A DNA stretch of 59,536 bases, counting the filler, from Sphacelaria rigidula (Eukaryota): the NCBI GenBank assembly GCA_964200075.2. It is 5 parts of 5 records of this genome, joined end to end, with 100 filler letters (N's around TTAATTAATTAA, not from the genome) between each part and the next. Parts side by side here need not be neighbours in the genome. Positions count along the whole stretch, not along the records: positions 11,931 to 23,760 come from CAXNAA020004451.1; 4 more parts are not named here. The stretch is one strand, 5' to 3'. A program made the translations under genes and the position numbers. Position 1 is the stretch's first letter, and each line of letters begins with the position of its first letter. Below, one piece after another: positions 4,561 through 53,559 of this stretch. A model generated the notes under the pieces. The model saw nothing but the letters and a program-made list of their open reading frames with translations. It did no database searches and was not told where the DNA came from.

Positions 4561-4598
<38 letters not shown>

Positions 4599-6545: not shown

Positions 6546-7479
6546 CTGAGGGACATCCCCCGCCGCCGTCGCCGTTTGATTCGATGTTGTAGAGGGCCAC
6601 AGCAGTAGCAGGGTCGGAACAGGATTGCATATTTTACCCGTTCATGTCCAATGACACACGTACAGGAGGGCAGGGAGAACGCAGGGATGCGCTGGTGAGA
6701 GGGGGAAGGGGCATGGATGTCGAGTTCGGGATAGGTGATTGTATCTATGGGTTTGCGCTCGCGGATGATACCATATCGACGGCTCTGCTGATCCCTGGAT
6801 ACTCACACGAGGAATACTCGAAACAGGGAACAACTTTCCAAGCACCCACAAGGTTCGGTGACAGTACGAGGTACAGTACATGATCTTGTTTCGTGGTGCA
6901 CTCATCTTCATAGTGGCTGTGGAGGAAATTGAGCGATGTAAGAAAAAGCGGGAGTTGTGTCAAGTGGGGTTTCTTCCGATTTGTACGATGTGTATGTTGA
7001 GTGTGTGTAATCACAGAGAGAAAAACATATGAGGGTGGTTCATTTACGACATAGACGTGAAAAAATCGCAGGATGTGGGCGACAGGTGCGAACAGAATCG
7101 ACAAAACGGGCCACGGTAGAGCTAGGGCCCAGCTGGTGTGTCTCTTGTGCGAGCTTGCTTTTTTGGCGGATAAAACAACGCCAGCATGCTCGATATACGC
7201 GGAATTCTTCCGTCACTAGGGGCAATCAATCATCGGGGGAAATAAACAAGATTCAGAGGTGGGATGCGAAAGAGACGAAAACATGAGGGAAAACAAACCA
7301 TCGCCATTCAAGTGGCATTCAATCATTCACATGCGAAGAAATGCCCACGTTTTTTGCTGCTTCCGTCCGCTCAAGAGTTATTCCCATCCGCTATTGGCGG
7401 GGAATTGATTTTTTTAACCAAGCTTCCACACTTCGTTCACATGGAAGCCACTTGGCGAGCAGCGGGAGAAAAAGTTACA

Positions 7480-8960
7480 TGCACATTTGGTGCATTTTCT
7501 TTGCTTTCACATACAATGGCTGGCGATATTTCTTCCCAGCACAGGAAAAATGTGGACTTGAGCACATGTCTGTCAACGTTTCATCTTGGTGGAGAACACG
7601 CAATATTACGATCTTTACCTCTGCACACACACGAGTATCGCCGAAAAATACGGGACAGCGCCCAAGAAAGCTGCCAAGCTCCGGGTGAGTCGGCAGAGGT
7701 ACCTTGTACCCTGAAGTAACCCGCTCATTCAACTCTACCGTCCTCAGGCGCCAATCTTTGTTTTTCACACCCTGCCTTTGCTAACGATGATCTACCCTAT
7801 TCTCCGTTCACCGGTGTGCACATTGCTTTTTCGTGTCGACTTTCTGGACCAAAAAAAACTGTTGCAACGCGTCGGCTTCATTTGCGTGCGAGGAAAAACG
7901 TTCCCTGTGGTGGCCGAATGCAGCCAAACAACATCGACTCTCCAGCAAAACGGACATGCTCTCCGGTACAAGCGCCCGAGGGCACTGCACTCGTACTGCT
8001 GTGCAGCAATACTGCACGATTTCGTGTCCGAAAACACGGAATAACTATTGTGTCGCACTATACCACTGCCTGTAGTACGCGAAGGCGCCGGCCCTGTAAT
8101 CAAGAACCACGAAGATGGGAGGCTAAACCTTGGGGTTTGTTCAAAGCGAAAAGTTGCCCTGGAGGAACGGGGCTCACTAGACGACCGCATGCAGAAAAAA
8201 TGCCTACATTACGTCATGATGAAAACGCAGTTCACCATACCGATGGTTGGCGAGCTATAGGCCTCAATTTGACCCTTCTTGACCCTTCGGGCATGAATCT
8301 GCTTCCCGGGACAAATGCCGCCGGCTGAGGGCGTGTTCATTTCGACAATGGGCCAACGAGGGAAAACGGTGGGATTATCGAGTCCCAGTTTTTCAAATCA
8401 TCGTTTCGCGCCGTTTGAGTCCGAGAAACGTTGTAAGTGCACCACGAGAAAATGCGGTGGATGTCAGCAACCAACGGCTAATAGTACGCCCACCCTCAAA
8501 GTTGTTTTCACTGATGACAAGATACAATGCGGCCGATACAGCGCCGGATAGCTCAGACTGCAGCTCGAGATCAGCTGGGGTACGATGCGCTCGGTTTTGT
8601 GACAAAATGCCACGAACTTAAGCAGCATCGTCTGTTGTCGGGCAAATGCATCATTTAAAACTCTATATGGTCGCAAAAATCGCGACAAAACATTCACGCA
8701 TATGACGAACAGTCGCCCAAGATTCCATGGTTGCCACTGAAAAAAATAAGCCTTGTACCGCAATGGACGGTGGCTACGTCTGAAGGTGTCAGGCATCGAG
8801 CGCCAGTGTCCGAGGTGCCGGCGCATGCGGTCACATGTCGAGCACACGGTTCCAACTGTGGCGCATCGACTTGCATCTGATTGTTACGAGTATGACAGTT
8901 TTTCGCGCTATATTCCGGCTCCAAGAAGTAAAAAAATAATGCACGGCAAGCGCAGACAAG
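7480..8960 (+). mobile_element. Highly degenerate possible DNA-transposon coding remnant (THAP-like and SWIM-like traces)
   Basis: FFPAQEK...W...TSAH near 7530-7630 and QCP(R)GAGACGHMSS..FQL near 8800-8860, read across frameshifts. Weak similarity judged by eye. Confidence 0.25.
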
Positions 8961-10801
8961 AAGAACGAAGTTAAGCAACCAGGAGCATACATGACGTGGA
9001 TCTGCCAGATCGGATCTCCTCCATTTCGCCTCTAAGCTCGCTGGCCAACGAACTTCGTTAGTCACGCTGTATTCGTCGAAGTCGAAGTCAATGACAACCG
9101 ACAGTATTACACATGCATGTTTACGCGTTCGACCCAGACTTCATTCACTTGTGGAAATACCTACCCAACTGTGGCATACATTGTACCATACTAACCGCCC
9201 TGGACACTGAAAAGGCGGACACACCGAGGTTTATGTTGAAGGCTGAAGCGGTGGCGCGGTGGCGCTAAGGACAAGGAGGTACCTCGTTCAATCAGTGCCC
9301 TCCAGATTGTCCTGAACTTGGAAATACGAATTCGCGACACAGTTTGACATAATCTCCACAGGCTCCAGGTCTTAGTAACAGCCATCAGCTCGAGAGTGTA
9401 ACGGGAAAAGAAGATTGGGAAACGGTAGCTACAGTATAGGATCAAAGTATACCCCAAACCGTGAAATCTGGAGATTTGAGGTTTTGACGTCGTAGGATTT
9501 CTGCTCATGACGTATGCACCAAAGACCAACAAAGCCCCGTGATACTTTCCCTTACATCTGTCGTAAAAAAGCAGACCGCCCCCACACTTCGCAGTGCGGT
9601 AGGAATTGGTGCTGTAAATGGAAAATTGTATTGCTGAAAAAAGCAATCATTACAGGCTTGCGGGGGTCCCGGCGTGAACGCCTCCGGAAGCCGGTACAAA
9701 TTTGCCTCAAAATAAGAAATACAAAAGCGCCCCGAGGTAGCCAAGGAACACTCGAAGAAAGTTTCGCTAAGTAACTCGACAAACTGATGCAATGGGTCGT
9801 TTTCATGTTGCAGTACAATGTACCAGAGCCGGTTGTTATACTAAACTCAAGCAGGTGGAAGTTTGTACCTTTTAGGCTCACTTTATCGCACCAAGGCGAA
9901 AAACAACATCCCCTTTTTTGCAGTTACTGTAGACTCTGGCACTTTGCGCGCGTATCTCTGGGTATTCACGAAACACTCGAAGATTGGGTTTATCCGAGTC
10001 TTTCCTTTTCCGCCGGTTATAGAGGGATCCAGGAGGGCATGTGATTCCACAGGTCCCTGCTACCCCCGATAACCAGTGAAAAAACGAGAAAATGTCTAGA
10101 CCACCGCCTCCGAAAGTTTCGCAATGACCCGTGGTACAGTATACTGCATGTGTGCATGTTTTCAGAGTTCAACTCCAAGAAGCAGCGTGAAGTTTCGCGC
10201 ATGAGTGAATTCTGGATAATAAGTGCTGTAGCCGGGCAGCTTCTCTGTTTGGGAGCTCCACGCAACAACATACTCGTACATGCCGCGTACTCGGTGATCC
10301 CCGCAGGTCTCCAGCAGACAGCAGCGTGTGCTGTACTGTAGCTCACGCAATGTTGTTTTACTACTGTCGGTACTGTACCAATTCTACAGTCTCCGGTGAT
10401 TTGACGTCCTCGATTAACGGTTACAGCTCTTTGACCTCATATGTCGCACAATTTTCACTCGAAAATAACAGCAAGATGCAGATTACGCCCTCGCGATTAG
10501 GAGTGACTACAAGTACTCGTAGTAACAAGCGACCGCGTCTGTACAGTACTACTGGGTACGGCTTTGGTCATGGAGAGAACGCAGCCGAGCGATACGATTC
10601 TCGATGTTGTTTCTCTTAGATACAACACGCTGTTGCCAGGTTTTATCAAAAGGTTCCGGTTGGCTCTGCCCAAACAAGGTAGAAAACCGCCGCAGTCGTG
10701 GAGCAAATCCAGACTGAGAAATCATCGAGCACGAAGCGGGGGTGTTAAACCCCGTATCGTGAAGGGTCAGCTGCGTCAGCTGAATGGATTGGTATACATA
10801 C

Positions 10802-11830: not shown

Positions 11831-11930
11831 NNNNNNNNNNNNNNNNNNNNNNNNNNNNNNNNNNNNNNNNNNNNTTAATTAATTAANNNNNNNNNNNNNN
11901 NNNNNNNNNNNNNNNNNNNNNNNNNNNNNN
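11831..11930. other. Artificial contig spacer (N44-TTAATTAATTAA-N44)
   Basis: Identical spacers occur at 23761-23860, 35688-35787 and 47613-47712. Confidence 0.98.
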
Positions 11931-12004
11931 GGCTGATGCACCCACATACACCGAAAGGTGTAGACTGGTGCCCAGAATAAATGGGACGACAACACAACAC
12001 AACA
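11931..12004 (-). repeat. Interspersed repeat family B (partial copy)
   Basis: Reverse complement of 57997-58075 (TGTTG.CGTCCCAT.TATT.TGG...GTCTACACCTTTCGGT). Confidence 0.85.
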
Positions 12005-12689
12005 TGATCAGTCTCGCAGGCAAATGTGAAGAATTTGTTTTTTAATGTTTACCTGTTTATTGCGCTGCGCGGGGCCGAAAAACTGTGTTCTTTGGACCAG
12101 TGAGGGCCGATAACACCCCCTGGTAATCGAGGTACATGCAGTACCCCGTGTCACCCCGACAACACCAGTTGAGGGTTGTGTCCAGAGCACGACCTGCTTG
12201 TTTTCCCAATATTTTTTAAAGCGAGAACATTCGAATGCTGAAGAAGAATATATACGAGAAATTCAGAAAAATACACAACTACGAAAACTGCCCAACCGAG
12301 CTCTGCATAGCACAGGGTGTGTGTATGTGTGTGTGTGCGTGGAGGAGGGGGGGAAGGTGAACCAATCCTGATTACTCTCGTGAATAATTTTCCAGGCTTG
12401 TAGTTTTTTCTTTCTACCTCTATACTGCGTAAAAGCCGAAAACAAATGTGCTTGAACCAAAAACGACCAATAACACCCCCTGTAAAGTCAGCCCGTAAGT
12501 CGTTCAACATCGAGAGCAGCAGGAGTCATTCTTGTTTCGGAATGTAAAGCAGTCTCCTTGCATCTCCCGATCCCCAAACTTCGCGATCAAACGATCACTG
12601 GGATGAGCGGTGTCACGCGGAAAAATAACAAAAATACAATGGAAACCAAAGCTACTATAGCCCGTTAAGCAGAGTTTGCTTCGGGCAGG

Positions 12690-13150
12690 GAGACAACTGC
12701 GGTGTAGCTAGCAGCAGCCTTGAGCACACACACGTGCGATGCGTGGCAACGTCTGGAACGTCAATTGCGCGTCAACAATTTTCACAATTTGGGGGCGTTG
12801 GAATTGCGCCTGGGATTTGGTCTCTAGCCGCATTGCTTAGACCAATACACGAATGCACTAGCTACAGTTGCTACGGTAGCCGTTAGAAGCCTGCGAGTCA
12901 GACGTGTAGCATCGATATCTGGAACGCACATTGCAGGTCGAGTATTTTCACAATCCCCGGATGTTGGAATCGCGCAAAGGATTTGGTCTCGAGACACGTT
13001 TACTTTGACCAAGACACGACTGCATTAGCCACAGTAGCTGCGGTACATGCGTTAGAAGCCTGCGAGCACGACATGTAGCAGGAGATCTGGACAGCACGAT
13101 ATTCGGCTGTCGAGCACTTTTGGTCTCGGGGTGATGGAATTGCGCCTCAG
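12690..13150 (+). repeat. Diverged ~167-bp tandem repeat (~2.7 units) upstream of Copia gag
   Basis: GGAATTGCGC, GGATTTGGTCTC, CGTTAGAAGCCTGCGAG and TCTGGA motifs recur about 167 bp apart. Confidence 0.75.
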
Positions 13151-13199
13151 ATCTTGCCTGGTACGTCAACAGGTCTACAGTTGAAGTAGCTGCCCCAAC

Positions 13200-16100
13200 A
13201 TGGGGCTAATGTGCAACGTACAAGCGACTCTCGAATCAATCTTCAAGTTTGACGGAACGAGACTGACGTTCCGCGAATGATGGTCACAGGTTGGTGTAGT
13301 GATCAATTACTCGAGCAAGTTCTTCCCCGCCATTTTCGAAGGGAAGGAATGCCCGGAGTCAACAGGAGGGCAGTTGCTGAGCGACACTGCAAGAGCTGCA
13401 CCACTCAATGCACAGACCATCGAAAAATGGCTGGCGGAAACTAAGACCTCTTCCCCGTCCTGTATCTTGCCACCACCGGATCAGCAAACATTCTTGTGCG
13501 ACAGTACGAGGGCAGGATTCAGGGAAAATAACTTGGCGATGGAATAGCTGCCCGGAAAGCCCTCGCGGGCAAGAACGACAGTCACACAAACAAAAGCGCG
13601 GCGAGCTTGCTACGACGAGTGCATGGGCAGGATCTGGAGGACTTCTACAAAATGGACGACCTTCGGACCCGACAGCATGATAGGAGAGAGGTGGTCTCTG
13701 AAGAGCAGTACCAGGACAGTAATTTGCACTCCATCACCAATGACTACGACTTCATGTGACAGACAAACTTCCGCAAACGCAACGACCTGCCGAAGGAAAT
13801 CAAGTCCACAATGCGGAAGATATTCATCGACAACCTCTCTCGCTCATCCACCAAATCTGTTGCGGGTCGCGGCGTGGCCATGCAGGCGATGCACGGCGCC
13901 CTCAGAGGCATCCAGTGGTTTAACTGCGACTAATATGGGCATCGTCGCAACGCATGCCCCGAACCTTTGCGGGAGACGCCGCAGAAGCACCAACAACAGC
14001 AGAAGCAGAAGCAGAAGCACCCGAAAAAGGGAGGAGACAGCCAATCCAAGTTGTGCTCTTCACACAAGACAACGAGTTACAGCGTCGCGACAGTGGCCGA
14101 GGTTGTTCAAGAGGCCGGCGGAGCTCGTCGAGTCAGTTTCCGTTCTTCGATCATCCTCGGAGGAAATATTCTAGCAACGAGCTGCGGACGGTTTGTGATT
14201 ATTCAGGGCGTTTGAGAATTTCCGCATGGGAAGACGTCAACAACTTTGGGTTCGGTGAAGTATAATGCGGACAGCACCAACAACAACGGGGACTGCATCA
14301 ACAGCACCTCCCTATCATGCCGGTGCATAATCGTACGTCTAGACAATACCTGGACAGCGAGCTCGCCGCCGGAATCCAACGCCGGATGACGAACATCGTG
14401 GGGCTGAAGCAGCGCCACAGGATTGTTACCGCTGGAAAACACGTCGTGAGTGGCGCCGCGACGGGTACTATAGAAACGTCTCCGACCGAAACGGCGAGAA
14501 GCGCCAGGTTGCACTCTCAGTCCTCATCGTGCCTGTCGTGGGACGACATTCACTTTCTGTAGCTGCGGCATCGAACGTGGAAGCTGTTACCATGTTCGAC
14601 TCCGTTCGTTCGTGCCCGAAGGTGGAAACTTCGTACTCCTTTCCGTTGGATCTGGGCGGCGAAACAATGGAAACGGTCTTGCGAGCCGAGTCGGCGGGCC
14701 TGTGACACCGGCGTTTGGCACACGTCAATTGCAGGAGCCCGAATATTCCGAAGAAGTTGGACGACAACAGTGTCTACGACGGGGATGTGTCCACTTGCGG
14801 TATCCGAGCCATTGGCACAAACACGCAGTACCATAACCTCAGGGAGGCTACCTACGACGCGTCTCATCCTTTTCAACTTGTGTACACCGATCTAGTGGGA
14901 CCCATCACCCCTCTCGCGTTGGGGGGCTACAAATACGTCAGCAATGTCACCGACCAGGTGACCAGGCGGAAGTAGATCTTCCTCGTCATCAATGGCAGCA
15001 GCGACTCCATCAACTAGCTCAAAATGCTCGTGCAAACGATGGCACTTCCAGTGAATTGCGAGTGGAATACCTTAGCACGGGCAGAGGCGGGGGGTACACC
15101 GGTGGTGCGTTCGAGGGCTACTGACCTCAAACTGGCATTCGACACCGGTTCGACTCAAAAGACACATCGCAGCGGAGCGGCGCGTGCGAGCTTGATGGGA
15201 GGACTCTCGCCGGGATCGTGCGCCACCTTCTCTCGGACTCCGGCCTGCCGAATTTTCTGTTGAGAGAACTCATGTAAATAATGGTGACGAAGACGTTGCC
15301 GCATGCAGCGCTGGGAAACATCAGACTCAAAATATGCTTCTGCCGCAAGTAGGCAGATTTTGGACACCGTCCAGTCATCGTCGGCAGGGTGTTTGTTCAT
15401 GTCGAAACGCACATCAAGAAGCTCGACCTCCAGGCCTGGGAAGGTCAGCTCTGCGGGTACAGCATGGAGAGCAAGTCGTTTCGGATCCACAAGCCGGCCA
15501 AGAAAAACGTGAGGGAGACCAGGAAGGTCATATTGTTTCAGACGTAGTTCACATTGCGGAATCTGGAGATGGCGCGCAATTTTAACAATAGCAACTTCAC
15601 GCATCAGGTGCACGAAGGGTTTGTGAGGGATATGAGGAATTACACGTCATGCCTCGACCTCAATTCGCCGCTCAACCATATCACAGGGATCGATCCATCT
15701 GCATGGCTGATGAACTGTGGGATATAGTGCATACAATCTGCACTGCCCACCGGGTCTGGGCCTGCATCACCAGGGAGGGATTCCCATGCGGAAGCAATGC
15801 CGAATGAAGAATCCAGGGAAACTGCATCTTCAACTGCCTCAGGGGGGGCAACGTCGTCTGTTGCGGTAGGTGTCTCGCATTCCGACACGCGGAGCATGCA
15901 TTCCGCCAGAGCACCGAGTGCGCCAGGGCACACGGCTACCCGATCGAACGGTTAGTCTCTTCCCAATCCCAACAAGCCCGACAACTGGTTTTGCGCGGCA
16001 ACTCAGCGCGTACTGAATCCTCTAGCATACTACATCAAGGAGGTGGTGGCGGCCGTTGCCCACCACAAAGGCATTGTAGAGGACGCCCTCACCGCCACCA

Positions 16101-17373
16101 ATACCCAACCACAAGGTCGTTCGGAGGGGGAAAGGGTGACCACAATTTCGAAACCTTTAGGGACGCCATGGGCTACCGAAAGCACAAGACTGGAAATCTT
16201 GTGTCCGACAAGGAGATGAAGAGTCACGACGAGCTCGGGGTCTACTCTCTGGTATCTTCCTCCAAACGTCTCCCGAGAATGAAAGCGATCGGGTCGAGGT
16301 GCGGGTACAAGATGACGGCGGACAGCACACACAAGAGGCATCTGGTAGCCCAGGGTTGGAATCGGGTGCCGGGTAGGGACTGCGGTGGCACTTCTGCTCT
16401 GGTCTGCGGATTTCAGAGCACCCACACGGTGCTCGCCACAGCGACGGAACTAAACTGGGAGATCTATCAGCCAGACTACAAATGGCGTTTCTTGACGTGG
16501 ACGTCGAGTAGGAGGTGTCCGTCAAGATGGCGCCCGGTTACGAGGCCAGACAAGGCGGGAGTTCCGCTCGTGATAGAGTTGCACAAGAATCTTGACGGGT
16601 TGACTCGAAGTCCTCAGAACTGGCCGGAAACTATCGACTCGTATCTGGTGATAATCGGGTTCTTCCCTCTCAAGTCTGACACATGCGTCTACATCTACAA
16701 GAACGGCGACGCGATCATGATATTTACGCTCTACATTGACGACCTTTTTTTACTCGGACGAAACAGCTCATGGGTCATCGGGAAAAACCTGATGAGCCGG
16801 TTCAGGATGACCGACATGGAGAGCGTGTCACTCGTTTTCGGTATGCAGGTCACGCGGGACCGCGAGAAGGAAACTGGCCATCAGCCAGCAGAACTACACA
16901 AAGTTTGTGCTGGAGTGATTCCGCATCGGGAGCTGCAAATCCCTGGGCACACCCGGGGTCGGTACGGAGCTATCACGGGAATAACCGGAGGACAAGATTC
17001 TCAACGTGGTGGATAAGCAGGGCTACCAGGCCATCACTGACTCAGAGATGAAGGGTGGTCGCGGCACTGGCGGTGAAGGAGGCGGTTTTATGCTCGAATA
17101 TAGTAGTGGAGTTGGGATTTGAGGCGGAGTTTGCAGCGCATCGTTGCACATCTAGAACATGGCTACGCTCAACGTCTTCGGCGACCATATTTTCAGCGCT
17201 CGCACAAAGCACGTAGCCTTCCGTTTTTTCTATATCCGCGAAATGGTGAAGGGGGGCAAGATCAAGATCCACGACGTATCCACGGAGTAGTAACTCGCTG
17301 ATATCGGAACGAAACACGCGAACAAAAAGTGGCGCCGGTACCTCATCGACACAGTCGGAAGCTTTAGAGCATG
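13200..17373 (+). mobile_element. Degenerate Ty1/Copia LTR retrotransposon internal region (gag-PR-INT-RT-RH)
   Basis: Gag (KFDGT..FRE*W; zinc knuckle FNCD*YGHRRNACP at ~13920). Integrase PFQLVYTDLVGPITPLALGGYKYVS (14870-14960). RT with AIGSRCGYK, LVAQGW, KSDTCVY and LYIDDL (15991-17016). RNase H RTKHVALRFFYIRE..LADIGTK ending at 17373. Copia domain order, many stops and frameshifts, no matching LTR pair found. Confidence 0.95.
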
Positions 17374-17760
17374 AATAGCAATAGGAATCTTTGACTAGAA
17401 TTGTTTACTCGGAAAATACGGGGGCCCAGCACCTCTGTCAGCGTTGACGCTAGTTGGAATTACTCCAAGTGCATCAATCTGCGCTGAAACATGTAAATGG
17501 TGACCGTCGTGTATCGTTGTGGAGCTTTTTTTTTTGTGGATAGGGTTTCAATGTGTCGTCCGATTTGTTGCACGACTGCTGCTCTCATTTGGATGTCGAT
17601 CGTCCCGCACGACTTTCTTGTAAAACCGGTACTGCAGAGAGAGTACAGGCAGCCGTTTTGTAGGTACGACAACGTTCGCATGCGATATGGATTTTTTCAT
17701 GGGGCCGTTTTAACTCGTGCACAGTATGCAAATTGTTATCCAATCAGCAACCACTGCCAG

Positions 17761-18388
17761 TGTCGTAGAAATGGAATTGGTTCGGCTCATGGCAAGCATG
17801 TGAAAACTCCAATAGCAGTTGAAAACTTGCTTGGTACACTAGAATTGATTACCCATTGGGTATCGTGACCACGCAAGGTCTATATTACGAAGCCTTGTAT
17901 CAAGTGAGCATTTGGAGGGACTAAGTGAGAAAGTCGTTAGGGTTGATTGGTTGAAATTGACAACCAGGTAAAATATTCACGATGTGGAAACCACAACATA
18001 GAGGGAACAAATTCCCACAAGTATCTGTCAAGGAATCACCTTTTCACACTGGCGACCCCATGAGATAGCGCGTACGCCTCACGAACAGAACGTCCCGGGT
18101 TCAAATCCCAGATCACACCAGAGTGTTGGGAGCCGAACATCATGGAGGATACCCTCTGAGGGAGAGTTCAAAACTTACAGAAACTCTCCTGCGGGGATTG
18201 TTGCTTGGATGTTCCAACCCACGTAGAAGATATGTGAATCAAAAAGCAAAATTCCAGCCACTAGCCGGCGCAAAAGGTTACTCCTACGAAACCTACAAGA
18301 GGTGCATGAAAGAGGGAGATGATATGGGAACCACCAGATAGAAGGGACAAATTCTTACAAGTGTCTGTCAGGGAATCACCTTTTTACA
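17761..18388 (+). mobile_element. TRIM-like element: LTR (17761-18048), PBS, tRNA-derived internal region, PPT-like GCGGGGA, LTR (18199-18388)
   Basis: Two diverged TG...CA direct repeats share ACAAATTC..ACAAGT.TCTGTCA.GGAATCACCTTTT.ACA. TGGCGACCCC starts 1 nt after the first repeat. A purine tract precedes the second. No TSD seen. Confidence 0.65.
18050..18120 (+). pseudogene. tRNA-derived sequence (Arg/Val-like) with intact B-box and terminal CCA
   Basis: GATAGCGCGT D-arm-like segment, GGGTTCAAATCCC T-arm/B-box, ends in ACACCA. The anticodon stem is unpaired and the 5' acceptor strand is missing, so it is not a functional tRNA. Confidence 0.7.
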
Positions 18389-18859
18389 ACGAAGGTATTT
18401 TTTAGCAGGCAACTTCCATTGAGGGGAAGTGTTAGAGATGGCCATTGCGGCATGGCCCTATTGAGGCAGTGCTCAGTAGCATAGAGCAGGTAGTATTTTT
18501 CGTTGGATGAAGTTTTCGTACGTTGGAACTTTTGTCTGGAACAGTCAGGATCGATCTAGGAAACGGCATAGTATGATCTAGATCATTCTTAAGAGTAGGA
18601 TACGACGTCCTGAGAAAATGAGCACAAGAGAACTCACGAGCACATCGCGAGCCCATCCCTATGACACTTCACTTCTCCAACCTCTCGACATGGACTCCAA
18701 CCGTCCGTTGGTTCCTACAAGTCTTTCTTGGCCATAACCATCGATACAACACAAACGGGTTTTTTGCAAAGTCGAGCCCAGGCTAGCTCGGCAAGTTTCA
18801 GATTGTGTACACAACACATCCTTAACAGCCTTGCACGATCGTGCAGACCTTCATCTGGA

Positions 18860-19150
18860 AATACCATATCCCTTGGTGATCCAATATCTATCCATGATAC
18901 ACTTATACACCGGATGTTCATCTGAGATGTGATATGAATATCTAGTTGGAATATCCACCTGGGATGTGGATGTTCATCTCATGGGTGTATGGATGTTGAT
19001 CTCTCAGATGGACATTCATATCCCAGAGGGATATCCAAGATGGATACAATATTTCAGAATAGCATCCAGATGAACATCAATATCCCAAGTTCATGTCTAT
19101 CTGGGACGCGATAACTCAGATAGACATCCATCTGGGAATCCACATCGCAG
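18860..19150. repeat. Low-complexity GGATAT/CATCT degenerate repeat
   Basis: ATATCC, GGATG and CATCT words recur in both orientations. Confidence 0.65.
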
Positions 19151-19654
19151 ATGGAGGTCCCGCAATGATGCAAGACTGGGTGCCGGTGGCACATTCGTTC
19201 GTACCGGTTCTACCGTTACCATGCTCGATAGTGATGGGAACCCAACAAGATCACTCTCAGTCAACACACGAGAATCGCAGTACCTGGCGATGGCTTCCAT
19301 TGCATCTACTTGCGAATCACTCGCCGGACCAGGGGCCTTAGTTTTGTGATCTCGTAGATTCACGCTGCTCTTCTCGTCGTTCCGTAGCTGTACCCGCGTT
19401 GTGTCCCTCGGCAGTCGTCTGCGTGGTACTCCGTCGCGGAACTCCAGGATTTCTCGCCAAAGCAGGCCCTAGAAGATATATCATAGTATCCACATGAATG
19501 AACAACAGCTGCGGCGAGAGGGTAGGGGTACCATACTGAACGGCCAGACGGCACTGTAAGCTGTGGGCACTTGCGATACGTTGAAAAGCGATGGCTATCA
19601 AAAGAAGAGCTTTGATGAAGAAGACGTGTCGCCAAATATCTCAATGATGAGCAG

Positions 19655-20762
19655 TGCGCAATTAGCCAAAAACCGGTACGCGTATAACGCCTACATTTTC
19701 GTCAAAAACAGAAATCGCTGAAAACTTAATCAAGAAATGCAACAAATGCAGTCGCCTGACTGGCCGAATCACGTCGCCAACGAATTCTTGCGAAAGGAAC
19801 GCGCAGTGTACCTGTTAGTGACAATTTAATTTGGATTTCACCGGTGTTTGGCGGTCGACGTTCCTGACCGCAGGTTCCCGGTCAGCCCCAAAACATGTAC
19901 ACGCCACTATACTATGTTACCTTTCGGCGGCTGGCCGCCAAATGTTAAGAGTTTAGTTTCGTCATTCCGACCACCACCATCCCAACCCATGAAGGGCCCC
20001 ACCGTACCCACAATCACGCGGCTGTTCCGCAGCTTCAAAGTATACGCGCAAATATATCACGGCGGAGCAAAAACACGATTAGTTCTCTCGAGCGGCGGGA
20101 TTGATGTCGCTGCATGCATGTGCACTGTGCTTCGGCACGTGTCTGTACCTTGTCTGGCTGCACACTGACGCGCTTTGACGTCGGCCGTAAATGTGAAGGT
20201 GTGCATTACTTTTGGGGGGTGAACACAAGCTAGCTGCCGCTTCCATCCCTTTTCCGTTGGTTGAATAAACACCCCTCGCTAGCCGAGGGTAGTCAGTGAC
20301 CGACGCGTGCGTTGTGTCTTCGACTAGCCATCTTTTTTCTCCGCCGTAATATTTTCGCCCGTCCACTTCGAAGATGTAGAACAGCCGCGTGATTGTGGAT
20401 AGAGCCCCTCATGGCTTGGAATGGTGGTGGTCTGAATGGCGAAACTGAACTTCTAATCTTTGGCGGCCAGCCGCCGAATGGTAGCAGAGCGTCTGGCGAC
20501 ATGTACATGTTTTGGGGTTGGCTGGGAACCTGCGGTCAGGCACGTCGATCGCCAAAAACCGGTGAAGTCGTCCCCAAAACCGGCGGAAGCCAAGTGGGGT
20601 CGTCATTAACAGGTACACCGCGAGTGCCTTTTGCCAGAATCCGTAGACGGTGTGATTTGGCCAATCAGGCGGCTGAATGCGTTGCCTTTCTCAAGCGGAT
20701 ATTTAGCAATACCGGGTTTTGGCGAAGATGGAGGCGGTATATACCGGTTTTGACAACTGCCT
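19655..20762. mobile_element. Foldback / long-TIR non-autonomous element (~430-bp diverged arms, ~235-bp spacer)
   Basis: 19655-20085 is a diverged reverse complement of 20320-20762 (e.g. CCTGACCGCAGGTTCCC, TTCGGCGGCTGGCCGCCAAA, CCACAATCACGCGGCTGTTC). Confidence 0.85.
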
Positions 20763-21023
20763 ATCAGTATTCCTCGGTCGGGGTCCGATGTCGTTCGACA
20801 GTGTACGATAAACTACATTTGCCCATGCGCGGGCGGTACATGGTGAGCACCGCGTGTTCAAGAGTCTGCGGCATAATCGGATAGCACTGCTTCGGCAGCA
20901 TGTGTTGAAAACCTCTGTGGTTGCCGTATCGACAACTCCGTGGGTTACTTGAAGCAAACGCACGTGGTCAGCCTCCGCAGCAACGTAACAAGAACTAATA
21001 GTTGAGCACATACACGGGCTCAC

Positions 21024-22288
21024 CCACACGAAAACGTAGAAGATCCACTCAGTTCGGGGAATTTCCGCGCTATCCTCCAGCTTGACGATGGAGTAAAACA
21101 ACGCCAACATCACCCTGCGAAAACCGTTGCGAGTGCTCAAGGTCATTCAACCATGTGACTGCTGCGACACTCCTTCAGCGTCCAAGAGGTCGTGTGACGT
21201 TCGATGCCTTATGACGTGTATCATCGCAACACAAGCCTAAGCACTCGCTGCGCAGCACGAACCCAAGTATGCTAAGGCATGACGTGTCCTATCAAACGTA
21301 TGTGACGCCACATCTCACGTAACGATGGCTGTACGATGAAGTTCAAGATTCAAGTCAGGGACGGAACACTGTTTGCCCAGCCGTACAATATGACGCGAAG
21401 CATTTCCGAACACACATGTAACTGAGGAAGTCGAACAGGAAGCGGATGACTGGAATTTCGAAGAACACGTCGGGCTTCCCGATCAGCCCAGCAAGTGAGA
21501 ACTGGAGTCCAGGTAGTATTGCGTGGTGTGGAAACGTCCACCGAAGGAGTTCAATCTTGTTGTCGTGCAACATACCGCATTCCCACGTCCACCCTTGCAG
21601 AAACCTGACAACGACGAACAACGAGAGCGTAAATACCTGTACACCATGTCAGGTTTGAACCTAGTCAGCAGATTTCTCGCAAGACGCTAGCAGCGCTGCA
21701 GAAAGGCAAGAACAAAATGGTACAGCTGATGCCGAAGTGTTTCTTGTACTAAATTTTGACCAGCGCTGGTCCACGGGATGTTTTTCCAGACGAGTTCTTC
21801 ACAACATCTTCACCTCAGGAGGAAGGCCCAGGAAACTGCTTTCTCTTTGCTGCGCTTGTTTTTACGGTCGGCTGTATTACCATCATCTCCGCCCCCACCC
21901 CTGATGTCGTCGAAGCGGTAGAGACCTTCATTGATGGCCCTGCTGAAGGGATTTCTGGTTGTCAAGCCTGGCAACGTAGCTGTGAACTTGACGTGAATGA
22001 AGTCCAGCACCAGTCTGGAGTTGATGAAGTCCAGCGCCAACGATCCTTGGTCCAGGGCGTTCTGCAGTGGGTCGATCCACTCGGGATGCTGACTGTTGTG
22101 CAGACGACGTATCGGCAGACGTATGACACGAGAAGGAATGTCTTGCTCGCCTCGAGCCTCTTGCAAGCTGCAGAGTTGGGGTACTAGCGAAAGATTGTGA
22201 CCAGCTGACGTTGAACAGTGTCAGTCGAGATCGTGTGATACAAGGTGTGCGGTCTACGGGTAATCTGAAACGATGCTGGTTCCACAAC
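21024..22288 (-). pseudogene. Decayed TRP-channel-like multipass membrane protein gene (pre-S1/S1-S2 region)
   Basis: Exon-like blocks at ~22288-21880 (PLQNALDQGSLALDFINSRLVLDFIHVKF), ~21604-21417 (FLQGW..LPGLQFSLAGLIGKPDVFFEIPVIRFLFDFLSY) and ~21114-21024 (MVMLALFYSIV..EIPRTEWIFYVFVW). The splice sites joining the last two blocks are phase-compatible. There is an in-frame TAG and a frameshift upstream. Family assignment is by motif resemblance. Confidence 0.55.
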
Positions 22289-22324
22289 CTGGACAAAAGA
22301 CGGTGTATATTGCAATAGCAAAAT

Positions 22325-23520
22325 GATCTGTTGCAGTAGATGTTAATATTGTCGTCCGCAATGGCTATTGATCGACAAGCTTCTCTCTTTCTATTGTCGT
22401 TGGCAATATCTCTCGATAGACCCCTTTCCCAAACTTTTGTCCGGGCAGCAGTCTGTTGTGTGGGCCTACACCGTCAACTATCGTCACCGACCGAATGTAT
22501 CGATCGACAGCTTCCCAAATCTATTAATGGCGGCAATGGCTACCGATAGGCCGTGTGCCAAATATTTTGATGAGGTCGATGGCTATTTACACATAGTTTA
22601 CTGAATCTATTGATAACGGGTATCGCTATGGATAGATGGCGCATAAAGTCTATTGATGGCGGCAATGAATATGGATATATACATCAGAATCTACTATGGC
22701 ACACAGTGCCTACCGATATTCTCTGTCGTCCACTGCCACACCCAAATCACAACAGACTATGTATAGAGCATGCTATACTCTGTTGGAGTACGGAAGAAAA
22801 GCTGCAGATGAGCATGCAATGGGGATGACTACGACAGTGAAGCCGCAGGTAAGCATACAGTTGGTATATGATAAAAATATATGTGAACATATGACGTCAC
22901 GATTCTACATTTTTTGAACGGTTGTAAGTGTAGGAATCCGCAATATGTGTCGGCAAACGTTTACGAGTTTTGTTGTTGGTGTGGTGCTGGTACTTATGGT
23001 TGTGTCCCCGTGATGGACGTGAGCGCTGAGAGAACTTTGGTGCGTGGGCAAGATGCGATTATACCCTGGACAATGGACTATGTAATATAACATTGGCGCT
23101 GCAATGACCTCGAAATTTGACTGTCAAAGTTCATTGTCAGTCCTAATCGACTGACATGACTGTCTATTGATAGCTGTTGTATGCGACAATAGATTCCGGA
23201 CAAGGGACAGAATGTATCATAGCCCTGACAAAGAAGGGGCCAAGCTTTCTATCGATATAGGGCATTTGTTGCAATAGGCTCTGAATTAAGGCCACTGATA
23301 TCTATTGCTGTTCACAGTAGGGTCTGCAACGCGGCCACCAATATCGATTGCTGGCCACAAAAAGAGCTGACTGACGTCGATCACTAGCTACGTATGCACG
23401 TGTGTTCGGTCGATGTTTCCACCTTTCCCCATAGGACAGATGGCCAGCTATTGCCTCAGGTAGTTGCGTGTTCATGTGTTATGGGTTTTGCCGTTGATGT
23501 TATAACATCACTGCGGTGAT
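22325..23520 (+). repeat. ATCGAT/GATAG-rich repeat, copy 1 (probable left end of a hAT-like element)
   Basis: Collinear diverged match to 28567-29540 (GAACGGTTGTA, TTGTTGGTGT.GTG.TGGT, CCCTGGACAA, AATCGACTGACAT, ATAGGCTCTGAATT). Both copies begin at the same point. Confidence 0.8.
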
Positions 23521-23760
23521 CAGTATATATACTAGAGCTCGGACATTATTTGTGTAATTATTAACCACTTAAATGGTTACGCGTAGCGCAACCATCAACC
23601 AGTTCAATGGTCCACAATGGTTTGGTCATTGAGAGGCGATTCCGCGAGCCAAAAAGACCCCCCCCGGCAGAGGGGGCTTATACTAGGAGATAGATGGTGG
23701 CCACAGACGGCGAAACAGGACGGGGATGAGATATGTAACAGGGTGTTGTGCGATGTATGG

Positions 23761-23860
23761 NNNNNNNNNNNNNNNNNNNNNNNNNNNNNNNNNNNNNNNN
23801 NNNNTTAATTAATTAANNNNNNNNNNNNNNNNNNNNNNNNNNNNNNNNNNNNNNNNNNNN
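23761..23860. other. Artificial contig spacer
   Basis: N44-TTAATTAATTAA-N44. Confidence 0.98.
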
Positions 23861-35687: not shown

Positions 35688-35787
35688 NNNNNNNNNNNNN
35701 NNNNNNNNNNNNNNNNNNNNNNNNNNNNNNNTTAATTAATTAANNNNNNNNNNNNNNNNNNNNNNNNNNNNNNNNNNNNNNNNNNNN
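35688..35787. other. Artificial contig spacer
   Basis: N44-TTAATTAATTAA-N44. Confidence 0.98.
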
Positions 35788-39600: not shown

Positions 39601-42600
39601 AGCATGTAATCACGCCCAAACCATTCATGCTGTGGTGCTAAAGCCCGCTTCTCTGTTTCCGCGACGCAGGCCATCCGATGTCATGACGGTACTTCGACAA
39701 GTGCAGTCATTCTTACTTGCCCAGCATTCACAAGATCCGAGTGGGTTGCAGGAATACTTACTACGAGCGCTGATCGGCATTTGCGAGGTGATGAAATATG
39801 TAGTTAAGACTTTTTCTCTGTCGCCTAGTTGAGCTGGCTGTGACTGCTGACACTCAACGAGGTCAAGGTTCAAAGCCAACTCGAACAGTTTCAAAAGGGA
39901 TGACGCGTACGATGTTGCTTACGCCTACCTTCCATTCCGGACCAGTTGTATGGGTTACTGTAGTGCTTCCTGGAGCCAACTCATGTGCGAAGACTCCCAT
40001 CAGGCATGCGCTGTCAACACGTTCGTGGTCTGTCTAGGATCTACCGAAAAGTTTTGTTGAGCAGAGCAGCAGAGTTTCCGGATTGACTGGCGATCAGCTG
40101 CTTCTGTCATCTAGTAATATAGAAGCATCCATAGGTAGTTTGCACCTTGATCTTATACTGGAATTTCAAAACAGGAGAGCATTTATCAACTACATCCACA
40201 CGACGAAACTTCAACCAAAATTCGTCTCTGTAGAGATGCTTAGTACCAAGAAGGTGAAATATTACGCGCTCAGCACTACATGTCGGACATGTTGAAATAC
40301 CGCTGCCTGCGACGCTTGTGTAGGCGTCGTGTGCTTTGGAATTCGAGCTGGATCTCGTTCGAGTTTGCATGGACTTGGAGAGCGCCGCTGCCGTGCGCGT
40401 AGCGCGTACAACAATGGGCGGGGCTGAGAGCGTTGACTCGGAGACTTCTTCACAGCGCGAGGCAAGTGCGGCCTGGACTCGTGGGGCAGGAGAGGAGTTG
40501 CAGCAATTTATTTCCACTCTTATTTCGGCAGCTTGTCGCGCTAAACGCCAGGCGTGTCGGCAAGATAGAGAGCGCGTGGTACGCGATGCAGGCTTCGACC
40601 CGGCTATGTCATCGAAATGGGTGTTCATCAGCGAGGGTGGGCAATTAGTTTCCAGTGCAGACAGCGGCCATAGCCACAGTTTGGTCCACCAGTGCTTGCG
40701 GCGCGGCACATGGTCATGGACGCTCGGTTTGGAACGGGAGAGTAGCGGCGACGAGACAACGTGTGTGGGCGTTGCAGTGCACCCTGTGATCAACTCATGC
40801 TACGAAGACTCTCATCAGGTGCGCGCCGTCAACATGTTCGTAATTCATCTAGGGTCTGCCAATGCCGTTTGGTCCGCAGAGCGGTGTAGTGTTGAGATCG
40901 ACCGATGATTAGTTGTTTCTGATATTTGTACGTAGGCCGGCCGCACGGTTTGCTTTTGAAATGATCGCTTCATTAGCATTACACACATGGCACCACCGGC
41001 CGAACTCGGTGCAGTTATCGAACTTTGTGCGACTGTTTCATGATATTGCTGCTAATTCATTGTCAGATGTGGATGGTCCGCTGCTACAGTGGAGAAACGT
41101 ACAGCAATGGGGGACGTAGGAATATTATGACCTGCAAAATACACCCGCTGGATTCGATACGGCTGACGTTGAACTGCGAAGCCGGTACACTCTCATTGGA
41201 GGTGAACGGAGTCGATCAAGGCGTCGTCTTTTCCAATGTTCCCCGGGATGTTCATCCTGCAGTATGCTTTTATGGGGTTACGAAGTCAGTGCGTCTTGTG
41301 GAGCTCAAGCGAATAGATGGCGATTCTGACAGTGATATGTCGGACAACGACGAGGACAGCGATTCCTGCGAAATCAGCGAACGGCCGCTCCACCAAGCCA
41401 ATGAGGCCACAGGTTTAGAGGAACAAACGGCGCAACACTTGAATAATTCCCGTGTACCGGAGCGAGGCCGAGATGGTACGCTCGCTGGCCCTTCACTCTC
41501 TTGCGGCGAATTCGCGATGACTGGCGCTGGAAATCGCAAAGCGGATGAGAGCTTGCGCTCTAGACGAGATCGGCGAAGGGCAGCCCGGGGAGAAGACGAT
41601 GCTGTAGCTGAAGCTATTCGAGCCTCCACGGCATCCTCACAATCTACAGGTCTCCTTGCCGGTTTGTCGAACTTCGCGCAATGGTACGTTCCGCGCGACC
41701 GAGAGCCGTTGGGAGAGGGGCAAGACACGTCGGACGAGCAGGCGGCCATTGCAGCTACAAAAGGGGGTACACCGTTGTGGATGTCCAGTCGTCAAGGAAA
41801 CGCCGAGGTTACGTCTGCCGACTTACCTACAGGTACGATGTCAGAGGGCCGGAGTATTTAGGGTAGCTATGGGGGTGTGTTGAATTCCAAATGTTGTACA
41901 GGGGACAGACTGCTACCCTCGCGAAGGCCTTCAACGCCTGTCTCTGTTTGTTTACGCCGCTGGATATCGTGGGAACAGATTCGACTGCCGATTACGACTG
42001 GAGTATCGCTGGCCGAGGAGGCCATCCTGTCGACGCCAGGCGACGCTTCAGGTGAATTATTTTCTGGTTGTTGTACGTGGGGATTCCCTTCGATCGTACT
42101 TTTGAGTCACAGGTGCAGGTAGTTACGTGCGTTGTCTTCCTAACCAAAATACTCCCGCCATCGAATCACTTGCAATGCATGAAGCTTCGAGAACGCGGGT
42201 GACAATGACTCGTGGCGGCACGCGGCACATAGAGTAGTAAGCAACTCTGAGCAGAACCTCGTCAGCAGTAGGCGGCCTACGACGAGCAGAACAACAGGAG
42301 TCTCTACACTTTCTAGACCAATCGTCATGGAGCATCGGCGAGTAGCTGTCCGATCGAGAGCGCCAGCCCGTGTGCCGTCAGCTGCTGTGGAGGCCTACGC
42401 TTCTGTTTCACCATCTGTTTCACCATCTGTTTCATCCAACAAGCGCAAGCCTCTGTCTCTGGAGGAGCCGTACGTGATCCAACCTACAGCGACAGTATTC
42501 CACAAGCTGTACCAGTTGCTGGTGCGATCACTTGCGCAGGAGAAGGCCGAGAAGAGCCAAGACAAATCGGCAGGGGCGTTCGACTCGACAAGGCAGGCCG

Positions 42601-47612: not shown

Positions 47613-47712
47613 NNNNNNNNNNNNNNNNNNNNNNNNNNNNNNNNNNNNNNNNNNNNTTAATTAATTAANNNNNNNNNNNNNNNNNNNNNNNNNNNNNNNN
47701 NNNNNNNNNNNN
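47613..47712. other. Artificial contig spacer
   Basis: N44-TTAATTAATTAA-N44. Confidence 0.98.
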
Positions 47713-50414: not shown

Positions 50415-52848
50415 GCATGGAGAACGTGAACGGAGGAAGGTGTGCGGGACCCGACTGCTCAAAGCAGCCTCGATTTGCCCTCCCCGGAAACAAGGGCAAG
50501 TTCTGCTCCAAGCATCGGGAAGAGGGGATGGTCGACGTATTGTACACGGTGAGTTGCACCGATCACGCCGTATGGCACACGGCGTACGAGGAGTAGAAGG
50601 CGCATCCACGCGAATGAAGTTATTTCTTTTCTCCAAAGACGCACAAAACAGGCACTTTTGCATGAACATTCAAGTATACGGTGTGCGAAGGGTCGCAGTC
50701 AGCACCTTGGAGTGATTAAATATGACGCTCTGAGCATCCGCCTCAAAGTTGGGTAAGTGTGGATTCGGTACGAGCGCGCGAACAGTGCCCTTGAAAGCTT
50801 CGACGCCGAGTGCAGGCCCGCCTATCTTGCTACTTTGTTTGCCTTGTGCATCCCCGTTCGTGTATATTACTCTACCAGCTCTATCTGGACTTCTCTCGGT
50901 TGTTGTCTCTTCATCTCTACGGGTGTTCTGAATGCGTGTTTTGAGCCTACCCGATGATATATTGTGACGTACACTGCACCAACAGGGTAACCAGAAAGCG
51001 AGAACACCAAGCGATCGTGACTGACGGCTTAACCCGCTCTCCACTGCGCTCTGCTACCCCCTCGTTGTCTCGTCTCGCCCCCTTTTCCCTACTGCACGGC
51101 AGCCCTGCGCGACCCCCGGCTGCATGAAGCACCCGCACTTCGGCCACACCGATGGCGGCCCCCGCTACTGCGCACAGCACCGCGCGGAGGGCATGGTAGA
51201 CGTCAAGCACCGCCGCTGCGCCGTCAAAGGGTGTCGCAAGGACCGCCTACAGATTCCAGGCCCTCGTAAGCGCAGCAAGTTCTGCGAAATCCACCACTAC
51301 ACGGAAGCAGAGGAAGAGTTAGTGTACGGTTCTGCCTCGGCGGGTCGGGCAGCGGAGCAATCCATATCTCCTAGCGCAGGGCCGCCACGGCCGCCGACAC
51401 CGACAAACCCACCATTTTTAAAGAGACCCGCCTCGTCCTCTGCCATGAGCGAGTACAGCGGGAGCCGCGATAAACGTGGACGGATGATGTCTATCGCTGA
51501 ACGGTGAGAGACAGGGGGAGGGGGGCGGGGGCATTGTGTGCTCTTTTTGACAGTGAGTGCAACTCAAACAGGAGCTTGTGTGAATTCCTTTTAGAAGCAG
51601 TTTCCACCGTGCGAGGAAGCTATTCAAACATGCGAAGAGAACGGTTTGTTGCGCAACCGTTCGGCGTCATAAAAACAAGTATATACTGAAACGTTGCACG
51701 TGGTGAGGGCGCCATGATGCCCGCGTCACGAACGGAAGTTTTGTTTTGTCCGGAATCGGGAGTACCTCAAAGTAGCTGCTTGTTACCGTGGGGTTCGACA
51801 GTCCTATCAACGACTCGCGTGCGTTGGTCGTATTTGATATGGTTTCCATCACTAACGTCTCAGGGAAAGTGCTGGAGGCGTACCCGTGACCCAAGACGAC
51901 GGTAGCTTTCCACAGGCCTCGGAACCCAGGCTGCGTATACCCGGGGACGCCCAATTTGCCGGCGGCCCCGGCGAGCAGAAATGCCTACCTGGATTTTTGG
52001 CGACAGTTGGGCGCGCACTGCCAGAGGTTGCGTGGGTCGGAGGAGCGGTCGCGCCCTCCGAGTCCAGTCCTCGGTTCAAGAGTGCGCCTTTCGCCACCTG
52101 CTACAGCCCTGGGATGACTACGATCACGACGTCAACGCAGTCCGATCAGGCCTTCGTCGAGACAGGTGGGTCAATCTTGGAATATGATGAAGATGAACCA
52201 TGACCATTCAAGGTTGGCGATGGTGATTTTGTGTTACCTTGCTTTCCATGCTACCGCGTGCGCGGTGTTTGCTTCGATGTGGTATCTTTCAGCAACGTCT
52301 TGCTTGTGCGTGATGGAGTAAAACACAATTGACAGGAGGAAGCGCGTCTACTACATCCGGTAGTGAGAAACGAACAGCCTGCCGGCAGAAATCTACTCAC
52401 CCAGCTGTGCGCGTGGCAATTACACTTCGACATGGACGTTCACGTTCCCCCCTTAGGCTGGCGATTACAACCCAAAATCATTTCGCACCCCCTCCAAGCA
52501 GTTCGTCATGTTGTTGATCGCCATCCAGGGGTGGATTGTGTTCTTTGGGTACAACGTGGTCTTCCCTTCAAAATGGTGTTTTTAATTGAGATACTTTATC
52601 TCGTGTCGATGTCGTGTACTTACAGCGATCAAGCATATACCAAAACAGCGCTCTCGGTGCTCAAGGTCGCGAATTCAAGGGACGAGCCTTGGCTGTGGTC
52701 TCTCAAAGCAGCCAGGGCGGGTGATGCTTGTCTCTCTGTCTCGATTGATGAGATGAAGAGCAATACTGCGTACCAACCATGGCCTGTCCATACCAACACA
52801 CGTGTAGCCAAAAGCATGACCAACCCAAAGAACAAGGATAGCACAGTC

Positions 52849-52883
<35 letters not shown>

Positions 52884-53559
52884 ACCCCCGCCAACCACAC
52901 ACCACACACACACCCACACACCTCCCCANNNNNNNNNNCCCACACAACAAGACCAGCCCACTCATCCCCCCCCCCCCCCCCCTAACAAGTTATAGCGTCG
53001 ACTAAATATACAAAACGCTTCCGTGCCCATTTTTCAATCGCCCCTGTACGTTGCCCACCCACCAGCCCGCCGGAGCCAGACCCAGTCCGGCTACCGATCT
53101 GCAGGAGGTCAGGCCCTGACCGCCCTCGAGCCTGGTGACGCCAACCCATACCCGCTCTTCTCCCGAGAGGGAACACACAGTCACAACAGCGACGACAGAT
53201 CCCGTAGCGAAGGCGGCAGCGGCGGCAGAGCAAGCGGCGTCGATGGTAGGATACCGTGGGCTAGTTCCGCGGTATCTAGGCAGGCCTTGCCGTACCAACT
53301 GCCGCCGATTGCCACCGACATGGCAACAGGCATTCGGCCGTTCAGGCTACCGACTTGGAAACCGGCAGCGGCGCTGGTAGCGGATCAAGTTTCTTGGTAT
53401 CGGTCCTCCGCTTGGGGCTTTCCCAGCGGTAGTCGGGCTGGCTCAGTCGGCGGCGATGGGTCATGGGGAGGCTACGGTAGCCGGGATGTCGGGGTCGGTG
53501 CGGCAGGACGTGGGATGGTGATGCGAGAGTCCAGCAGCCGGCCGCCAGCCGTGATGTGA
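50415..53559 (+). CDS. EsV-1-7 cysteine-rich repeat protein with a low-complexity C-terminus
   Basis: Phase-consistent exons 50415-50548, 51103-51503, 51864-52165 and 53066-53559 (stop). Repeats GMENVNGGRCAGPDCSKQPRF..FCSKH, GMVDVLYTPCATPGCMKHPHF..YCAQH and GMVDVKHRRCAVKGC..FCEIH match the EsV-1-7 consensus GMV.V....C....C...P.F.......C..H. The 5' end is uncertain (ATG at 50417 or an upstream exon). Confidence 0.88.

Follow-up and report, generated by a model that had tools for sequence, protein, structure and literature searches.

Miniature LTR elements and the locus in Sphacelaria rigidula

TRIMs are miniature non-coding LTR elements that combine two short LTRs with a PBS-like site and a polypurine tract (PPT), generate a short target duplication and occur in many copies; their LTRs are usually quoted at roughly 100-250 nt. 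Among tRNA-derived SINEs (SINE2), short, non-coding, high-copy elements with a B-box-like run are found as well, and these possess a recognisable tRNA head and a LINE-derived or A-rich tail. For SMART/FRetro129 of grasses, which in 2012 passed for the smallest LTR retrotransposon, a length of 292 bp with 85-bp LTRs is given (PMC3281118). The animal Helenus elements generate 4-bp duplications and have been linked to Gypsy helpers, according to the part of Kojima 2024 that deals with this family (PMC10886601). In brown algae, TRIM families appear in the repeat account of Ectocarpus subulatus, where they come from automated annotation (bioRxiv 10.1101/307165); the manually curated table for Ectocarpus sp. 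7 holds no TRIM row, the term has 0 occurrences in supplement 1, and LTRs span 187-636 bp among the matches listed in that table (PMC12477816).

The locus considered here lies in a window of 59,536 nucleotides from S. rigidula (assembly GCA_964200075.2), which is composed of five pieces of ~11.83 kb. Linkers of the form N44-TTAATTAATTAA-N44 (11831-11930, 23761-23860, 35688-35787 and 47613-47712) recur in steps of ~11,927 bases; neighbours across them are not real, and the genuine context of the element is 11931-23760 only. Other pieces of the window contain an ORF with an EsV-1-7 cysteine-rich motif (51025-51504, +, 1.4e-12), a motif characteristic of brown algae and of the viruses that infect them, and an ORF with a SPRY domain (40977-41858, +, 1.3e-06). 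Long, mutually matching G or C homopolymer runs are seen at 6-69, 4561-4597 and 52851-52889, and a tandem repeat of 1.9 copies of a 148-base unit at 59094-59371.

Positions 17983-18388 very probably represent one old copy of a TRIM-type non-autonomous LTR retrotransposon, inserted in a degenerate copia 3' region. With TRIMs in general the element shares two short LTRs, a PBS-like site, a PPT, a non-coding interior, a short duplication, a small size (406 bases) and many copies; its LTRs of 66 nt fall below the usual TRIM range. SMART/FRetro129 is likewise very small and non-autonomous, with TG..CA-type ends, a PBS and a PPT; in a comparison by description, the LTRs measure 66 nt here versus 85, the interior 274 versus 122, and the duplication is 4 bp here, whereas a 5-bp duplication and a copia-type candidate helper are given for the grass element (PMC3281118). 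Helenus/TRIMp3 is also a TRIM with a tRNA-reminiscent stretch and, in the animal Helenus, a 4-bp duplication, but its tRNA-like boxes A and B sit inside the LTRs, as laid out in the sections on this group (PMC10886601). At the present locus, the stretch lies after the PBS, with a match to the B box only (18098-18108) and none in the LTRs; the small-RNA-like promoter within the LTRs by which Helenus/TRIMp3 is defined is absent. The defining features of a tRNA-derived SINE are absent, too: the B-box-like run is the one match, whereas the locus has LTR ends with a PBS-like site and a PPT instead of a LINE-derived or A-rich tail, a fixed 4-bp duplication and no recognisable tRNA head.

Terminal repeats and borders

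Repeat search and blastn of 17501-18700 against the window found a sole direct repeat, which pairs 17981-18048 with 18321-18388 (68 nt, 84%, E 5.6e-15); the same blastn search revealed no copies of the element elsewhere in the window. A previous reading made from the sequence alone (hereafter the sequence-only reading) had placed two diverged LTRs at 17761-18048 and 18199-18388, with an interval of 150 bp between them. The last 66-68 bases of both are indeed repeated, but the remaining parts do not align: MAFFT of the claimed 288-nt and 190-nt LTRs confines the likeness to the last ~70 columns, with gaps and scattered matches elsewhere, and 17761-17980 and 18199-18320 show no mutual alignment by MAFFT, blastn or repeat search. 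The 5' LTR accordingly extends over 17983-18048 (+, 66 nt, TGTGG...CACA) and the 3' LTR over 18323-18388 (+, 66 nt, TATGG...TACA), and the true interval between them is 274 bases (18049-18322). The two LTRs are identical at 55 of 66 positions and differ by nine transitions and two transversions. TG...CA termini are present in the 5' LTR; the 3' LTR reads TA..CA, one transition away. The repeat extends two bases further, with GA at both 17981-17982 and 18321-18322, so that the LTR border is blurred by two bases.

The element is flanked by a perfect 4-base target-site duplication, ACGA, at 17979-17982 and 18389-18392 (both +). The borders that define it were set independently of the ACGA match, by the loose ends of family contigs described below. 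Given borders fixed by the contigs, identical flanking four bases have a chance of 1/256, a value that refers to this one copy only. With the LTR borders redrawn to 66 nt, the TG..CA termini, the TGG site, the purine tract and the ACGA duplication all fit an LTR retrotransposon.

Family copies in public sequencing contigs

The stretch is present in five public runs, and contigs of four of these, from two studies, were aligned on 17000-19500 at 80% likeness; the counts of loose ends and joints obtained from them are lower bounds, among the matches listed. In run X1, the element's own locus is represented by contigs (records 2, 4, 5 and 7) with a depth of 58-68 and 0-1 differences. Outside the element, the summed depth of X1 contigs is 169 at 17840-17923 and 226 in the bin after 18427. 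Inside, it amounts to 3371 in the bin from 17924, 26789 at 18008-18091, 5186 at 18092-18175, 2169 at 18176-18259, 4720 at 18260-18343 and 3379 at 18344-18427; such sums do not count copies and are therefore read only as the mark of a high-copy family. Variant letters at 17995-18057 are borne by 85-89 different X1 contigs, and most contigs differ from the window at 18057, 18070 and 18078, as read off directly rather than from a family consensus.

The ends of the repeats emerge clearly from these contigs. Unrelated sequence stands before 17983 in at least 33 X1 contigs (agreement 0.39, about that of random letters) and behind 18048/18049 in at least 42 and at least 19 (agreement 0.36 and 0.44). 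Across the four runs, agreement at the loose ends at 17983 and 18048/18049 ranges from 0.35 to 0.44, as for interspersed copies with unrelated flanks, and the remaining three runs show the same loose-end classes as X1. At least 23 X1 contigs carry a purine/G-run tract that ends just before 17981, and at least 17 contigs on the second repeat run on past 18388 into the TTGGCGAC... PBS-like run; the joints 18378->18037 and 18383->18061 also link the LTR to the PBS region in other copies (X1). The sequence-only reading had named a single-copy arrangement without relatives as evidence against itself; instead, the order of LTR, PBS and 'tRNA-like' run recurs in many copies. Exact-pattern scans with the T-loop/acceptor-like run and with the 3' part of the LTR found nothing in metagenome or viral contigs.

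Sites lacking the element are found in the same data. The joint 17971->18398, with 10 letters between, occurs in at least one X1 contig and in three of the four runs, and the joint 17971->18405, with 17 letters between, in at least three X1 contigs and in all four runs. The letters at these joints resemble the flanks in the window minus the element and one ACGA: paralogous sites without the 410 bases exist. The segment 17761-17980 was rejected as part of an LTR: paralogs join it to 18398/18405, and it belongs to the host.

These observations bear on the simplest rival explanation, namely that two short interspersed repeats flank another repeat by chance and that no retroelement is involved. 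In its favour, the shared repeat comprises only 66-68 nt and is more abundant than the mid-interior, but the TG..CA ends, the TGG after the left copy and the purine tract before the right one would all have to coincide, the flanking tetranucleotides are identical, there are sites from which all 410 bases are missing, and many other contigs show the same junctions of LTR with PBS and of PPT with LTR. A chance arrangement is thus very improbable.

Copies of the family also vary in their interior. The joints 18056->18147, 18109->18242 and 18120->18214 mark variants in which parts are replaced or absent; in at least one, with the joint 18056->18147, positions 18057-18146 are swapped for 35 other letters. 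In at least one X1 contig, the joint 18308->17981 (shorter side: 88 letters) appears to lead from the interior through the purine tract into the LTR and on to the PBS region. The order of interior, LTR and PBS is as expected of a tandem array, and the contig appears to represent an interior-LTR-interior tandem arrangement, which is known for some TRIMs.

PBS-like site, polypurine tract and non-coding interior

The PBS-like run TGGCGACCCC is located at 18050-18059 (+), with TGG starting one base after the 5' LTR. The sequence-only reading had placed such a site right after the 5' repeat of a miniature non-coding LTR element, and this part of it is borne out. As a string, the run is found at chance frequency: with one mismatch permitted, 4 occurrences in the window compare with 3.9 expected. 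A literature search for TGGCGACCCC matched primer lists only. Rfam weakly assigns 18051-18078 to the HIV-1 splice-donor hairpin (E 0.72), by way of a 6-bp stem over the PBS.

At the other end of the interior, the polypurine tract GAAAGAGGGAGATGA (18308-18322, +; 14 of 15 purines) abuts the 3' LTR; such a purine content is reached by 431 of 118034 15-mers in the window (0.37%). The string GCGGGGA, previously noted before the second LTR, is present at 18191-18197, but it lies 125 bases off the true 3' repeat and is not its PPT. The other strings of the sequence-only reading are in place as well: TGGCGACCCC at 18050-18059, GGTTCAAATCC at 18098-18108, CCA at 18118-18120, and the hairpin strings GGAGAGTT at 18161-18168 and AACTCTCC at 18182-18189.

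The middle of the interior (18121-18307, +) is variable and non-coding. It includes a hairpin at 18154-18196 with a z of -2.9, a region that was chosen post hoc and for which 4 of 200 shuffles fold equally well; taken as a whole, the interior does not differ from shuffles in its folding (z -0.57). Two ORFs that cross the interior, 18002-18226 and 18069-18341, have no Pfam match. With 274 non-coding bases between its LTRs, the element is a non-autonomous one of the TRIM type.

The leader stretch next to the PBS

The stretch 18060-18120 (+), the former 'tRNA-like run', contains a T-loop-like hairpin at 18097-18109 and ends in ...CACACCA. Among the copies in X1, it is better kept than the next 100-200 bases: 59-67 contigs bear variants at 18070/18078, with summed depths of 6800-9600, versus ~900-2000 at 18121-18219. 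According to the sequence-only reading, this stretch is a tRNA-derived cassette with the PBS in the position of the A box. The reading as a tRNA-derived cassette is not supported by searches with tRNA models. ARAGORN reports 0 tRNA genes in the window and 0 in 17951-18420 down to the threshold ps80; at ps70 and ps60, the latter region yields five and seven scattered calls on both strands, which is noise. Rfam at E<=10 detects no tRNA in 17000-19500, 18030-18140 or 18072-18121, the last query being cut so that a 5'-truncated tRNA match could score; it picks up only the 13-nt hairpin GGGTTCAAATCCC (18097-18109), via models that bear a T-loop. The folding of 18049-18125 does not surpass that of shuffled sequence, 170 of 200 shuffles doing equally well (z +0.96).

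The promoter boxes give a similar picture. The B-box pattern GGTTCRANNCC is found three times in the window versus 1.04 expected, a number reached by 11 of 100 shuffles, and the other two sites (24822 and 39867) are unrelated to GGTTCAAATCC. The A-box consensus is TRGCNNAGTGG, of which the corresponding position shares only TGGC. By eye, a loop CTCACGA is located 13 bases upstream of the T-stem-like run, roughly at the position of an anticodon loop; no pairing for acceptor, D and anticodon stems is visible by eye in 18060-18120.

In our reading, 18060-18120 belongs to the leader, adjoins the PBS and is conserved; it may descend from a tRNA or act as a signal for packaging or priming. Read-through of the tRNA primer was rejected as the source of the tRNA-like stretch: on the basis of plus-strand strong-stop synthesis, it would yield an antisense rather than a sense tRNA after the PBS. 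A decayed tRNA or tRNA-derived SINE relic, which would have landed in an ancestral leader and have no promoter role now, is compatible with the TRIM explanation; it is conceivable, if rather doubtful. The negative ARAGORN and Rfam results, the shuffle-like fold, the near-chance B box and the acceptor and D-stem pairing, which cannot be drawn, argue against such a relic, and the T-loop-like hairpin, CTCACGA at plausible spacing and the ...CACACCA end argue for it. An origin of this kind would also have a counterpart in Helenus, for which insertion of a SINE into TRIMs is proposed in the pertinent part of Kojima 2024 (PMC10886601).

Pol III transcription and dual priming as unlikely alternatives

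A more far-reaching proposal of the sequence-only reading was a Pol III-transcribed TRIM/SINE hybrid, in which internal A and B boxes would be contributed by the tRNA-derived cassette that lies between the LTRs. Several features are consistent with it: GGTTCAAATCC fits the B-box pattern, the CTCACGA loop 13 bases before the T-stem-like run is near the place of an anticodon loop, and 18060-18120 is better kept than other parts of the interior. Moreover, T-runs are located near the 3' ends of both LTRs (18041-18044 and 18381-18385) and no run of four T in the interior, and LTRs of 66 nt would leave little space for a Pol II promoter. The hybrid is nevertheless unlikely. No tRNA is recognised by ARAGORN or Rfam, even with a 5'-truncated match permitted, the fold resembles that of shuffles, the B box is near chance level and the A-box position retains only TGGC. 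In addition, a start dictated by boxes behind the 5' LTR would fall at or past the T-run 18041-18044, and at least one variant has 18057-18146 replaced by the 35 other letters. Replication of the LTR type needs a terminal repeat (R) in the RNA; a Pol III transcript starting at the end of the LTR and stopping in the T-run 18381-18385 would have no R for the first strand transfer. With no match to a tRNA model, a weak A box and an RNA without R, the hybrid is left unsupported.

A related layout is a long shot: the TRIM would carry a gene-internal type-2 Pol III promoter, positioned not within the 5' LTR but immediately behind it. If true, this would relieve the LTR of the promoter, so that it could shrink to 66 nt, and a third type of organisation would join the Pol II TRIMs and the Cassandra/Helenus-type TRIMp3. 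The lack of terminal redundancy would have to be overcome, for instance by transcription from tandem arrays, an arrangement that the X1 contig with the joint 18308->17981 appears to show.

The sequence-only reading also considered a second, opposing PBS on the minus strand and thus dual tRNA priming. The site in question, TGGTGTGATCTGGG, is the complement of the T-loop/acceptor-like stretch. Dual priming, or a minus-strand element with TGGTGTGATCTGGG as PBS, could invoke the TGG followed by the complement of the acceptor/T-arm-like run and an LTR that reads TG..CA on the minus strand too, but the minus orientation fails the tests for PBS and PPT: it has a pyrimidine tract after the 5' LTR and no purine tract before the 3' LTR. 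Among the matches listed, the sole loose end at 18120 (10 contigs of run X5) goes on much as the window itself does, and none of the loose ends listed marks a family border at 18120, which makes either version hardly credible.

The copia host and the age of the insertion

The host of the TRIM-type element is a frameshifted Ty1/copia pol remnant at 14895-17365 (+; RVT_2 1.7e-21 by Pfam). In tblastn with three relatives, the pol pieces in 14895-17365 are spread over several frames and the C-termini end at 17347-17365; the integrase end, RT and RNase H are recognised by tblastn and RVT_2 by Pfam. The best named relative of the copia RT comes from Ectocarpus (40% identity); like the EsV-1-7 motif ORF, this agrees with a brown alga or close kin as the source. 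An LTR pair of the remnant was not found in the window. The TRIM is inserted in the copia 3' region, ~600 bases downstream of pol, which explains the few-fold repeated flanks and the 'empty' paralogs. A 1238-nt contig (X1, record 1) runs unbroken over 17000-18120 with 204 differences and 9 gaps, so that the insertion is shared by one or more paralogs of the host element; some copies may have spread as copia passengers rather than independently. The LTRs diverge by ~17%, which is of the same order as the divergence of this contig, and the insertion is therefore old.

Further repeats are found downstream of the element. The segment 18596-18679 is a short high-copy repeat, with a summed depth of 4277 in X1, where single-copy contigs reach ~60; in run X3, its copies continue alike behind 18654 (agreement 0.82). 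At 18910-19160, short direct and inverted repeats are clustered around TGGATGTTCATCTC in what looks like a MITE-like foldback; this region has weak Rfam matches resembling microRNA precursors (E 0.11-6) and a paralogous contig with many small deletions. An inverted repeat of ~420 bases with 74% identity (19669-20073 and 20333-20751) possibly belongs to a DNA transposon or a foldback element, of which it would form the arms.

Proposed mobilisation in trans

The best-supported mechanism is the one usual for TRIMs, mobilisation in trans, which we infer here. The RNA of the element would be packaged and copied by the RT and integrase of an autonomous LTR retrotransposon. The 3' end of a host tRNA would pair with the putative PBS TGGCGACCCC and prime the first strand, the purine tract would prime the second strand, and the integrase of the helper would generate the 4-base duplication. 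The caveat is that an LTR of 66 nt would leave scant space for promoter, R and U5.

As to the type of helper, the curated Ectocarpus families give 4 in Gypsy rows with a TSD entry and 5 in Copia rows, among the matches listed in the relevant table (PMC12477816). Taken together with the 4-base duplication, this rule, which comes from another species, makes a Gypsy-type helper appear more likely than the neighbouring copia. The copia pol is the only LTR-retrotransposon remnant of the window; this neighbouring copia was rejected as helper in view of the 5-bp rule and of the lack of a shared LTR in the window.

Implications

The element is ordinary in kind; what stands out is how short its LTRs are. 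With it, the brown algae gain a well-delimited TRIM family, of which manual curation, as represented by the Ectocarpus sp. 7 table and supplement 1, has so far listed none for this lineage (PMC12477816). For annotation, two lessons can be drawn: short LTR pairs can be overlooked or given wrong borders, and T-loop-like runs in repeats do not amount to tRNA genes or SINEs unless a tRNA model matches. With 66 nt, compared to the 85 nt of the element called the smallest in 2012 (PMC3281118), the LTRs of this family bear on the minimum sequence that a working LTR requires.
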